Source: Octopus sinensis (taxonomy: Eukaryota). Taken from it: DNA of 64,000 nucleotides. Of the stretch, positions 2,778 to 34,182 are shown one piece after another. The DNA lies in assembly GCF_006345805.1 (NCBI RefSeq), contig NC_042997.1, forward strand, positions 40,548,001 through 40,612,000. The letters are read 5' to 3'. Below the pieces are notes generated by a model. The model saw only the letters and a program-made list of their open reading frames with translations, searched no databases and had not been told where the DNA came from. How positions within the stretch are numbered: the first letter of the stretch is position 1; each line of letters opens with the position of its first letter. The position numbers were made by a program, and so were the translations under genes.

Positions 2778-3034
2778 GTAGTAATGGTAAGACAACAAAA
2801 GAATGAATGAGATCTCGATATTATGTAAATAGAGTAAGTTATCTGTAATATAATAATGACAATTATTCGGTTGCCATAATAAGACTCCGAGTTTCGGATG
2901 TCGGGGCGGAAAACTGCTCTGGCATCTCGTCAGTTATCGATGACTGACAAGATGCCGGAGCAGTTTTCCGCCCCGACATCCGAAACTCGGAGTCTTATTA
3001 TGGCAACCGAATAATCGTCACATATTATATTACA
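2778..3034 (-). mobile_element. Short Penelope-like (pLTR-type) insert with fold-back palindrome, between (TA)n and (CA)n
   Basis: Inverted repeat 2844-3034 centred on ATCGAT (2936-2941), with an HHR motif in each arm. Confidence 0.75.
2878..2938 (-). ncRNA. Type I hammerhead ribozyme motif
   Basis: Minus strand reads gataa-CTGACGA-GATG..CATC-c-GAAACTCGGAGTC-ttatt. Stem I is ataa/ttat, stem III is ACTC-g-GAGT, cleavage triplet GUC. Confidence 0.7.
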
Positions 3035-3664
3035 CACACACACACACACACACACACCACACACACACACACACACACACATATATATATATATATATAT
3101 ATAATATATATATATATATGGATGAATGAATTATCGTTTGTTTACAGTTAACACGGAAAATTCAAGAAACAGTTGAGTAGCAAAATTCACGCAAGTAACA
3201 AGGGTGTAGCGACCTATTCGAAAGTCGAAACTCCGGGTTAATGTGCAGTAATTTGTATAGTAAAAGTAAATATACTAATAGTAAATAAATAGAACGCTAT
3301 TTAGCATTTTTATTTTTAAAAAACCGTAAGTAGATCTGATGTCAAAAGCAGACAATAGGAAGAGAAGGGGTAAAGAAATAATAAGTAGAGAACAAATAAA
3401 GAGGGATATATTGGCTGAAAAAATGTTCAAAGGCTTGGAAGTAGATTTCTCTATTGAAGTAAAGTGCAAAGTGAACTAAATGTTCAAACTATACAGACTG
3501 GTATAAATCACTTATATGAGTTAAAGGTGTGTTTCTGCCAGTGCTTACATTTGTAAGATCGCTCTTTAAGTGTGTTAAAACCAATGTTGTCTTCGAAACA
3601 TATGTCGAAAGTAAAAGAATTTGAATAACAGCTGCGTTCAACTTCATTTATTTACTTAGTTATT

Positions 3665-3811
3665 TATATATATATATATATACATATATATATATATATA
3701 TATATATATATATATTATATATATATATATATATATATATATATATATATATATATATATATATATATATATATATATATATATATATATATATATATAT
3801 ATATATATATA
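3665..3811. repeat. (TA)n microsatellite, one of dozens in the window
   Basis: Seen directly. Confidence 0.98.
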
Positions 3812-3847
3812 GGTGAGAAAGTTGGTGGGTGAAAGCATAACGATGTA

Positions 3848-3885
3848 AGAAATTTGAAAAGCTGAACGCGAAACCGGTCATTTCT
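3848..3885 (+). ncRNA. Minimal type I hammerhead ribozyme with U3-A8 core variant, in a roughly 195-bp insert (3812-4006) between (TA)n tracts
   Basis: agaaat-TTGAAAA-GC tgaac GC-GAAA-CCGG-TC-atttct: perfect 6-bp stem I, palindromic ACCGGT stem III, GUC site. Confidence 0.75.
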
Positions 3886-4049
3886 GCAAAAACTATGTCA
3901 TTGTATGAAAAAAATTTATAACATTCTTCAGACATATTGACTCAAATATATATTTTTTAACCTTTTAAAACAAGCCTTCTGTAGTTTTTTCACTTTTTAC
4001 TATTTTATATATATATATATATATATATATATATATATATATATGTATA

Positions 4050-4270
4050 GTTGTGTCTTTGGGCCAGGCACTTACGTCGTGTTGCTCCAGTCCACTCAGC
4101 TGGCAAAAATCCTCAAAAGGATAGTCTTGTCACAATTTGTGTCACGCTGAATTTTTTCTGAGAACCGTGTTAAGGGTACAAGTATCTATAGAGTGCTCAG
4201 CCACTTGCATAGGCTGTTCTGTTGATCAGATCAACTGGAATCCTTGTCGTCGTAACCGACGAAGTGCCAG
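4050..4270 (+). mobile_element. SINE family C, 5'-truncated
   Basis: Body and tail match the copy at 42152 (ggctgttctgttgatcagatcaactggaatccttgtcgtcgtaaccgacg). Confidence 0.75.
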
Positions 4271-30446: not shown

Positions 30447-31245
30447 TATGTGTGTGTGTGTGTGTGTGTGTGTGTGTGTGTGTGTGTGTGTGTGTGTGTG
30501 TGTGTGTGTGTGTGTGTGTGTGTGTGTAATGATTGCAGCTATTGCCAGACATCGATCATCGAAAAGTTATAGAGCGAGACAATGGTATCGATATGTTCTC
30601 ATAAGACGTTAAGAACAAGTTTAAAGATTATTTTTATTGATTTATTATGAGGACATCAAAGAGCCGAGCAGTTAGATTCATAGATCAGACATCACCACTC
30701 AGCAAGAAATATGCATTATTGACAGTCACAGTTCAACCTACAAGAAATAGCAGCTAAATCTCCCTCAAATTATTTTCTAACATGTAACAGAGAGAAACAT
30801 ATAGAATAAGTCTAAAATATACAGGAACGTTATGGGTTAATCGTGAGTAATCTTCTTATTAGGCATAAAAAGAGTGTATCTAAAAGTAAAGAAAAAGTGT
30901 ATCTGAGTGTCAGTAATATATCAAAGTATATTTAAAATGACAAAGAGAACAAGTTGGAATTGAAAATATATTGTATAAGGAATCATTTCTTACAACCATT
31001 TCCTCGTGTTTTATTTTTTTTTATTGCCTTCATTTACATGAACCTGGCATTTTGCCACTTGCTAACAATAAGGGCAAATGTATCAGGATGGGTGATTAAT
31101 GATCTGTAGGCTTCATACAAACATATGTGTATGATATATATATATAATATATATATATATATATATATATATATTTACAAACATACTTATACAGAAACAT
31201 GCATATGTGTATGATATATATATATATATATATATATATATATAT

Positions 31246-31365
31246 AGGCACAGGAGTGGCTGTGTGGTGAGTAGTTTGCTTACCAGCCACATGGTTCCCG
31301 GTTCAATCCCAATGTGTGGTTCGTTGGGTAGGTGTCTTCTACTATAACTTCGGACCAAGCAATAA
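31246..31365 (+). mobile_element. SINE family A head fragment
   Basis: ggcacaggagtggctgtgtggtgagtagtttgcttacc.. Confidence 0.75.
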
Positions 31366-32714
31366 AAAATCTCTGAGCGAGATATAAACCGTAGCAACAC
31401 GACATCGTGAAGTATATTTGTCACCTAAATGTGGCTGACCCACATGGTACGATGCTACTGTAGTTTATAGCCCCAGGAAGGCATCTCCTCCAGCTGACTA
31501 ATGACACACTGTCTGTGCCCTATCAGTATTTACAAAGAGAAATCATCGTTCTCATCTTTAGCCTGATGTGACACATACGGTCCCGGGTTTTCTAGGTAGT
31601 AACCCCTTCAACAGCGTGTGACAATCACCGGCTAGGGATGAGTGGTGATATTTCCAATGCAAATATAAATGTTTTTTTCCATTTGTCGTCTTGGTGTTAA
31701 AATATCGCGGTAGGGACCGCTTGAACAGACAGTCATGTTAAATTGGCTACGAATATTACTTGCCAGTGCAACTACTGAGCTGATCTCTCAGTGAGATTTT
31801 AGAACTAGCATTTTTGCTTTTACACACACACACACACACACACACACACACACACATATATATATATATATATATATGCTGAGGCAAGTTGATAGACACC
31901 GATATGTGTCTGTATATGTGACAAAGTATATTAATTTTTTTCTAAGCTTCATAGGAGTTTCAAAGACTTGTTAGTAGATCGAGTTTCATGGTGTTTTAAC
32001 AGATTAGTAATAAATTTTATTCTAATCGAAGGATAGTCTATGACAAATAACATTTCTAGGTCATCTAATATATATTCGCGACAGTTTAAGACTACGGTAA
32101 TAGGAAATAATGTGTTCAGCAAGACGAAGCATTAGTTGTAAATTTACACTCACTTATGTAAATATATGTCTACGCAAATACATAGTGAAAGGAGGAGAGA
32201 CTAATTTTATACATATATATAAACACACCCGTGTATATACACCCTCATAAATCCATACATATATGTTGACACATGCATACACTTATATGGCTATTATGAG
32301 GAATAAGTATTATTATCGTTCAAATTAGTTGTGGGAAGAGTAGGATAGTAAAAACGAACAATGAATTTAGCATTGAAAATGCTTAGAGAAGAGGAAAATA
32401 ATGTTTAGAGAAAAGGAAAGTAAGTTTAAACAAACGAATGTAGCTCGTGTCTTCTGTGAAGAGCAGATCTCGAAAGACAAAAAAAATCATTTTTAATCTT
32501 TGTTTATTGTACGAACAATTATCACATGAAATATGGCTATTTTTATTGTTTAACCCCCAAACCAAAACTGATTGTGAGAGATATTGTACATAGATATTAA
32601 GCCAAAGAACGTATAACAATCTACAAATACCAAGCTTTGTCTAAACTATAATGGCTTTTCTACAACGAATTTTCTGTCGTCAGATAGGCGCTTTAACTGT
32701 GTCCATGTCGTTAA

Positions 32715-32880
32715 TCTTTATCTTTTAGTTGTTTCAGTCATTTGACTGTGGCCATGGCGGGGTACCCCATCTTGAAGGATTTTCGTCGAACAAATCGACC
32801 CTAGGAATTATTCCATTTGTCTCATTAGCCGAACCGCTGAGTTATGGGACGTAAACACACCAACACCGGTTGTCAATGAT
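32715..32880 (-). mobile_element. SINE family A tail fragment
   Basis: gtttcagtcatttgactgtggccatg..gaaccgctgagttatgggacgtaaacacacc. Confidence 0.7.
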
Positions 32881-34004
32881 ATATATATATATATATATAT
32901 GCATACACATATATGTGTATATGTGTGTATGTATGTTTGTATGGATATACATACATACATACATATATACATATATATATGTATATATATATATATAATA
33001 TATATATATATATATATATATATATATATATATATATAATATATATATATATATATATGCACAACTGTGTTAGTTATCCAGCATATTCCTTTTGTTTTGT
33101 TTTTAAGACAGTATGGCAACATTTGAGGGAGATGTAGTTGATCGACCTTGTGGAGTCTTAGTCGTTGAATCTCTTTAAATTTAGTGTAAGGTAATGCCGC
33201 AGATAGAAATGTATTTCATAACGATAGTTGACAGGTAAAAGTGCTTGAGGTGAGGTTCTCACTCGCTCTAACTGCGACTTTTATTGAGAAGATATTTAGC
33301 GTAAAGAACGAGAAAGCCAACTGTCAGTCTCAGCAACGTGTTTGTTAAATAAATGCTTACAAGGGTTACAATAGATGATATGAAAGAAATACTATAGAAT
33401 AGATAGCAATTTGTAAGATCATAAAACGTACTATTTATCTCTAAGGTGTATTACAATGAAAAGTTGAGAGTTAGCTATCAGTGGCAGATAATGTGCTCCT
33501 AGTACTAGACCATACAGAGTTTTAACGTTCTTAAACGAAAATGATTTTTGGAGGTTAAAGACGAGCCTCTGTAGAATTCCCGACTACATAATTCCACATA
33601 AGACGTATATGTTTGTATTCTGTTTTTAAATTCATTTCGTTTTTTTTTTTTCTCGTTTACGTTGTGTTATGCACAGATGCTTTTTAATAACGAACCGCAA
33701 AGAATGCTTTCTATGTAACTGATCAATTGATTCAAGAACGACTTCAAGGAGCGGTCAGCAAAGCGCTAAACTGTGCGTCAGGAGACTCCCACTTGCTTTT
33801 CCTTGTACATCAAGATTATGGAAAGAATACCTTTACCTTCTTGTTGAATCTTATTCACAGTGCAGCTTATATATATGTGTGTGTGTGTGTATATAAAGAA
33901 CGATGGTCCATCAGCATGGCTGTAGCTCTGAGCTGAAACTACAGAATATATATATATATATATATATATATATATATTATATATATATATATATATATAT
34001 ATAT

Positions 34005-34182
34005 ACCGGAGTAAACACATAAATGTGAAACAAGGTGGAAAAAGGAGTACTCAAATACCAGTGGTAGAGTAATATGCTTTATTTAAAGCAGCAGAAACTT
34101 CAACAAAACCTGTTACTCTGAGTTTCCCGTTGCCGTTCACCCGATGAACGGCAACGGGAAACTCAGAGTAACAGGTTTTGTT
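34005..34182 (-). mobile_element. Short PLE-like insert next to (TA)n with perfect 38-bp-arm palindrome and HHR core (U4C variant)
   Basis: Arms 34102-34139 and 34145-34182. Plus arm reads CCGATGA-aCG gcaa CGg-GAAACTCAGAGTA. AATAAA is present in the minus-strand tail. Confidence 0.75.

Follow-up and report, generated by a model that had tools for sequence, protein, structure and literature searches.

The stretch of DNA considered here, called the window below, covers 64,000 nucleotides of the Octopus sinensis genome (NC_042997.1, positions 40,548,001 to 40,612,000 of the forward strand). It contains four palindromes, P1 to P4, that turn around at or near a hammerhead ribozyme motif. We believe that each of them is a single insertion of a Penelope-like element (PLE), likely made by twin priming, in which two cDNAs ran off the likely capped 5' end of an RNA and were joined head to head; we put the probability of this reading at about 0.62. 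The insertion architecture is known in kind; what is new is the evidence on mechanism, namely, a base-precise inner boundary, an extra G at this boundary, and a rule by which the two arms are paired. Copies were searched for in 2.72 Gb of genome.

The inner boundary

The sequence-only reading of the window had reported inverted repeats at 2844-3034, 14491-14612, 27937-28221 and 34102-34182, and all four were found where it had placed them. The families are labelled by the starts of these palindromes (F1, 2844; F2, 14491; F3, 27937; F4, 34102), and all are high-copy. Positions within a family are counted from C3/U3 of the hammerhead core, which is 0; negative values are 5' of it. Exact matches to the tail pattern number 222 for one subfamily of F2, 2911 for F3 and 3684 for F4 genome-wide. 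The F2 sample consists of the first 100 of the 222 matches minus the duplicated window copy, i.e., 99 loci, with loci from biased core-anchored searches left out. The F3 sample has 60 loci, half of them picked by similarity to the window copy, and the F4 sample has 69.

Of the F2 loci, 55 are inverted copies, 34 are long and 10 are simply truncated. Among their 154 arms, 88 reach position -6 and 38 stop exactly there; 53 end in -6..-4 and 3 in -7..-26, and the background of arm ends downstream is 43/6617, or 0.65% per base. Exact F2 matches over the whole genome have a non-native base at -7 in 739 of 2356 cases and a native one in 1617; divergence at -5 is 175/2531. The boundary base is -13 in F3, with 30/99 arms ending in -13..-11, and -17 in F4, with 28/119 arms ending in -17..-14. 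All three boundaries lie at the predicted start of the helix that closes the ribozyme: at its first paired base in the predicted F3 and F4 folds and, by inspection, at the edge of stem I in F2. About one third of the tail-anchored F2 loci (34/99) extend past the ribozyme; therefore, the axis is not obligatorily located there.

The claim that the breakpoint is non-random stands, with 37/55 F2 axes falling in -8..+6 (p about 1e-17 under a narrow uniform null). The choice of the CUGA box as the fixed point does not: the real one lies 6-17 nt further 5', and the axes seen in the window are mostly scatter just 3' of it.

A purely random truncation, with the ends joined at self-complementary words of the ribozyme or the centre lost later, would require no RNA end at all. 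We find this explanation very improbable. Some axes are indeed located on helix III (2/13 in F1 and 3/26 in F4), and -6 in F2 coincides with a self-complementary 4-mer. This word served in 13 junctions at -6, but never at +41, where it occurs again; neither a 6-mer at -13 nor the 4-mers at -8 and +28 were used a single time. Microhomology alone does not account for the boundary. Non-inverted copies also begin at the boundary, and the extra G described below would be left unexplained.

Considering that the Rfam scan of the window contained no hammerhead among the 150 of 284 matches listed, the ribozyme calls rest on inspection of motifs and stems. The core boxes, stems I-II, palindromic helix III and the NUH triplet were seen by inspection in F1, F2 and F4; many F4 copies have C at position 4 (U4C). 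The core of F3 is the U3-A8 variant with a stem I of only about 3 bp. The F3 ribozyme is degenerate, and a predicted long-range helix between -13..-7 and about +113..+119, which would close the whole leader, begins exactly at the boundary. Minimum-energy folds of F2 and F3 do not give the hammerhead. Arm ends display no clear pile-up at the cleavage site predicted from the motif; the arms cross it. A TATA-like word is located 29 nt before the F2 boundary, with no clear counterpart in F3 and F4, and we do not rely on it.

The extra G

In F2, F3 and F4 alike, the base at the boundary is A, and a pyrimidine comes before it in the genome. Nevertheless, arms that end at the boundary are commonly preceded by G: 34/58 in F2 (loop-less pairs removed), 55/100 in F3 and 55/84 in F4, compared to the expected 26, 22 and 36%, respectively (hand tallies). 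At the control position -5, one base inward in F2, G was counted in 32/100 against the expected 26%. The native upstream sequence carried this G in 0/30 F3 loci and in 0/19 G-bearing F4 loci that were read, so the G belongs to the junctions and does not represent a subfamily variant. A G that follows neither the partner arm nor the target was found, e.g., in L024, L217, L242, L466, L491 and L497. Full-length insertions driven by L1 carry a cap-derived extra G at the 5' junction, which can supply microhomology, according to the relevant part of PMC11702581. The hard boundary together with the extra G would thus favour the second guess of the earlier reading, that the template RNA begins at the axis.

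The same boundary could be obtained if both cDNAs were halted at the 5' edge of the ribozyme by a block (a protein-bound helix) or by a processed RNA end (an exonuclease stop or a 3' splice site). We consider this unlikely. It agrees well with the boundary being the first paired base of the predicted closing helix in F3 and F4 and the stem I edge in F2, as well as with the AG at the F2 and F3 boundaries and with the Drosophila virilis element, in which an intron ends at helix I (PMC4209133, passage on this element). However, the enzyme would have unwound the 3' strand of stem I before it came to that edge. A splice or other processed end is at odds with the AG being retained in the arms, with F4 arms that extend 5 nt beyond the AG, and with the lack of a common upstream exon sequence at the junctions examined. 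Finally, addition specific for G is a known mark of the cap, as described in the part of PMC11702581 on junctions.

Arms and outer ends

The two arms of one insertion can be compared at their inner ends; the F2 counts of relative reach given next, and those of outer ends in the tail-anchored samples, include five loci from the biased core-anchored searches. The short arm extends at least 4 nt further 5' than the tail-bearing arm in 20, 19 and 17 insertions of F2, F3 and F4 (56 in total), and the reverse is observed in 13, 14 and 11 (38 in total). Snap-back synthesis would have to use the tail arm as its template, which leaves no way for the short arm to extend beyond it in the 5' direction. 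Among the 55 F2 junctions scored, 13 have both arms ending at -6, several of them without any loop; the 100 F2 boundary matches listed include 21 loop-less pairs. The arms are also concordant. Either both end at the boundary or both extend past it in 50/54 (F2), 44/46 (F3) and 33/36 (F4), and about 35 head-to-head pairs were recognized by eye among the first 100 long F2 arms; hence the two arms derive from one kind of RNA and plausibly from one molecule. The junctions carry microhomology or short templated inserts.

An alternative proposal is that a single cDNA folds back, or that an antisense RNA primes itself, as proposed for Adineta, and that the endonuclease then cuts and integrates the hairpin, thereby setting the unequal outer ends. 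The Discussion of Arkhipova 2013 takes junction palindromes as self-priming (PMC3846280), and the tail is ascribed to endonuclease resolution in the corresponding passage of PMC8557442; concordant arm lengths would be expected here as well. Yet only the tail arm could be the template, which disagrees with the 56 against 38 insertions counted above. Loop-less junctions cannot be primed hairpins, and a boundary with an extra G at the sense 5' end would not follow from an antisense template. We therefore regard this proposal as improbable. Of the earlier suggestion that reverse transcription stops or snaps back at the ribozyme fold, the single-cDNA snap-back fits worse, and the stall persists as the rival discussed in the previous section.

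The outer ends are equally regular. In the tail-anchored samples, the inverted partner of the tail arm ends near a first site, +61 in 57/59 cases (F2), +130 in 36/39 (F3) and +71 in 47/51 (F4). When F2 arms beginning at the first site were taken instead, the tail was on the partner in 17/17 visible partners (30 of 994 arms examined; two are the duplicated window copy). The rule is that one arm starts at the end of the pseudo-long terminal repeat (pLTR) and its partner at the end of the tail. These ends correspond to the pair of internal start sites between which the tail lies in PAc, the Poseidon element of Anolis, as given in the main text of PMC11167929.

Matches of at least 9 nt resembling target-site duplications (TSDs) flank 27/29 parsable F3 palindromes, a count made with no shuffled control. 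Such flanks bear on whether the palindromes are fold-back chimeras of libraries or of the assembly, which we find hardly credible. Homopolymer-type errors do occur in the assembly; but in addition to the TSDs, the fixed unequal outer ends, the 5% divergence between the arms of P1 and P3, and the templated inserts all contradict an artefact. The same boundaries are also present in independent short-read contigs from public runs of other studies: among the matches listed, loose ends occur at -6 in 3/4 runs, at +61 in 3 and at +131 in 1. In three runs presumed to come from RNA, the step in depth at -6 is smaller than that of the DNA run; we use it neither for nor against our reading.

Discussion

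We presume the following order of events. The sense RNA would start where the ribozyme fold begins on its 5' side. The protein would nick both target strands, each of which would prime at one of two fixed internal start sites; both cDNAs would run off the RNA 5' end, and their ends would be joined head to head by microhomology. Joining with short templated inserts or with the loss of a few bases would scatter the axis over the core, as in the window, and read-through RNAs would give long palindromes. The ribozyme would be crossed uncut, as for PAc in vitro, with the template not cleaved, and would mark the axis as the likely first structure in the transcript. We infer an RNA polymerase II start with a cap at the boundary, one RNA and a protein dimer serving both arms, and sealing by host end-joining. 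The boundary may coincide with the ribozyme in some families only.

It is tempting to go further and to consider head-to-head twin priming as the default insertion mode of these PLEs: a protein dimer would make two copies of a single capped sense RNA, using two start sites close to the RNA 5' end, the short palindromes would be pairs of strong-stop-like cDNAs in which the transcription start is recorded at single-base level, and the hammerhead would be the first RNA structure. For this generalization we see even odds.

Several points weigh against the proposed twin priming. The putative start and cap at the boundary are read from genomic sequence, and the boundary windows were picked after inspection of the data. 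F1 has no single boundary; its 13 inverted copies scatter from about -27 to +51. Many of the G's are readable as microhomology with the partner arm (13 F2 arms), and the G of at least 4 solo F3 arms is inside the target duplication and is thus paired rather than added; a G shared with the partner or the target is what would be expected if the terminal C of the cDNA pairs there, but it is weaker as proof. Reverse transcriptases (RTs) are also able to add bases at uncapped ends. Later central deletions could mimic part of the arm asymmetry, 2/3 long partners in 9-kb stretches extend past +61, and an AG lies at the F2 and F3 boundaries, as noted above. PAc strands showed no difference in start site in vitro, so the rule of one short and one tail-bearing arm is not accounted for by that work (PMC11167929, main text). 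The D. virilis element has its start 121 nt before helix I, and what maps at helix I is an intron end (relevant passages of PMC2377424 and PMC4209133).

Inverted truncated copies, one-sided tails and pairs of hammerheads on opposite strands are already published. Insertions of endonuclease-containing (EN+) PLEs with inverted pLTRs are described in PMC3846280 and PMC8557442 with the same head-to-head 5'-truncated inverted copy, tail at one end, TSDs and (TA)n targets; the published passages contain neither a base-precise inner boundary nor an extra G, and that of PMC3846280 prefers self-priming on an antisense template. Our search of the PLE literature, with incomplete coverage of subscription papers and supplements, did not find the base-precise boundary, the extra G or the pairing rule. 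Type I minimal hammerheads of PLEs, as presented in sections of PMC4209133, share the core boxes, the palindromic helix III, the extra base before stem II and the U3-A8 variant with ours. They likewise occur in opposite-strand pairs, 100-700 bp apart, and those sections report no link to the inversion point.

A close biochemical parallel is the PAc protein, a predicted dimer that works on uncut RNA and starts at two internal sites to extend both target strands (PMC11167929, main text). The two start sites bounding the tail and the hammerhead at the 5' end of the open reading frame (ORF) are the same as here, and the uncut RNA template is the same as in our model; PAc differs in that its strands show no difference in start site, and the main text offers no model of the inverted junction. 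For comparison with that text, the F2 tail is 70 nt, and the F2 ORF starts 3' of the tail. In L1 twin priming, as treated in parts of PMC11702581, both target ends also prime on one RNA, the cDNAs are joined by microhomology, and full-length 5' junctions have an extra G. There, the second primer starts where the first cDNA ends, which results in an inversion; in F2-F4, unlike L1, both cDNAs would begin 3' of one shared region, which is thereby copied two times and gives a palindrome.

These results bear on how the inverted ends of PLEs arise, which RNA strand is copied and what the hammerhead does, the published proposal being antisense self-priming. Hundreds of young insertions preserve base-level detail pointing to a sense template that carried a cap and was copied twice, and the same reading of junctions could map PLE start sites from genomes alone. 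A by-product is many short perfect hairpins across the genome. The sequence-only reading had proposed the palindromes of the window, once transcribed, as potential ADAR or Dicer substrates; the geometry of the double-stranded RNA hairpin behind this idea would hold for any head-to-head repeat.

The families

The Penelope-like origin is upheld by inverted insertions with a one-sided tail and by the ORF motifs of F2. At one locus the F2 tail continues into an RT ORF, and a second locus has an ORF piece 98% identical to it that ends in a GIY-YIG domain; therefore, the F2 ribozyme and tail form a 5' leader to the ORF that recurs at the 3' end as the pLTR. The RT has DKT and YRDD in L181; RWR instead of the N-terminal RWK was read by eye in a frameshifted copy. 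The translation of L186 3598-4995 has a C-terminal GIY-YIG with the CxCX5C linker and the CxxC/CxH motifs as described in the relevant part of PMC8557442. Pfam gave no RT or GIY-YIG match for the two F2 ORF pieces. A hammerhead in the pLTR and (TA)n targets are both present. By its motifs, F2 is tied to a Penelope ORF resembling the Hydra clade of the same part of PMC8557442. One hallmark of that clade is a short element, <3 kb (same source); up to 2.7 kb of microsatellite-rich DNA upstream of the pLTR is common to F2 copies, and their unit looks longer than that. In L182-L189 this shared sequence is found about 2.0-2.7 kb 5' of the ribozyme, and the element thus spreads simple repeats; long F3 copies have simple repeats 5' of the ribozyme too.

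F1, F3 and F4 have the inverted 5'-truncated copy, the one-sided tail, and a TSD or a (TA)n target. We assign them to EN+ PLEs provisionally, by architecture. F1 is older (1409 first-look candidates, identity 92-94%). A boundary at -24 was considered for F1 and failed: it had 4 matches, 3 of which are native-sequence variants by eye. A palindromic unit spreading non-autonomously, similar to a miniature inverted-repeat transposable element, was ruled out since the junctions vary from copy to copy.

A tandem array of F2 units (L034, G000:C9:87419736-87422865) runs from -138 through the ribozyme and the tail to the ORF start in each unit, with a spacing of about 180-420 nt; it is retrozyme-like and derived from the PLE leader. 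An F2 subfamily (L201, L216 and loose contig ends) has another sequence 5' of -6, and the pyrimidine-AG is kept at the boundary.

Features of the window

A type I minimal hammerhead motif reads outward on both arms in each of P1-P4. The turning points agree with the earlier description: in P1 the axis (2938/2939, loop 0 nt) is 5 nt before the minus-strand core at 2933; in P2, with perfect arms of 60 bp, the 2-nt loop is the first two bases of the core at 14551; in P3 the spacer is the family sequence -13..-1, which is present only on the short arm and precedes the core at 28093. P4 has arms of 38 bp and the core at 34141. The insertions are longer than their palindromes because one arm bears a tail of 60-70 nt (Table 1).

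Table 1. Parts of the four insertions in the window
Feature	Position	Strand	Description
F1 tail-bearing arm	2778..2940	-	from -7; type I minimal hammerhead (core 2933-2927), pLTR end and tail; terminates in (TA)n
F1 short arm	2937..3034	+	core at 2944 mutated; shares a self-complementary 4-mer with the tail arm; loop-less join, axis 2938/2939
F2 short arm	14491..14550	-	+2 to +61 (first start site); (TA)n at outer end
F2 tail-bearing arm	14547..14682	+	-4 to +131; core at 14551; predicted cleavage after +39; 4-nt microhomology with the short arm
F2 palindrome, second copy	16274..16465	.	within the 1.76-kb local duplication, offset 1783
F3 left TSD copy	27867..27878	+	12-bp target-site duplication
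F3 tail-bearing arm	27879..28079	-	-3 to about +189; U3-A8 core at 28076
F3 short arm	28080..28220	+	starts exactly at the family boundary, -13; G at 28079 before it, common to both arms; core 28093
F3 right TSD copy	28221..28232	+	target-site duplication
F4 tail-bearing arm	34004..34139	-	+4 to +139; (TA)n at outer end
F4 short arm	34141..34182	+	0 to +41; one inserted base at 34140; unrelated sequence ends the arm before the usual +71

The second F2 palindrome (at 16274) belongs to a local duplication of 1.76 kb with 98.7% identity and is, therefore, not an independent insertion. The sequence that interrupts the P4 short arm (34183-34400, minus strand) presumably resembles the end of a mariner transposase; it has no Pfam support, and Pfam gave nothing useful on the right flank of P4.

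P1-P4 are a selection, since the window contains five other complex inverted repeats whose axis is not next to a core. Complex inverted repeats of this kind, lacking a hammerhead core at the axis, are located at 48258-48371, 51462-51623, 59114-59189 and 61802-61848. Motifs similar to the hammerhead core occur outside the palindromes at 5287 and 29421 (plus strand) and at 24968, 24592 and 59879 (minus strand). Elsewhere in the genome, a second class of axes falls on the palindromic helix III, the dimerisation element of the ribozyme (L102, L103, L160, L166 and L171).

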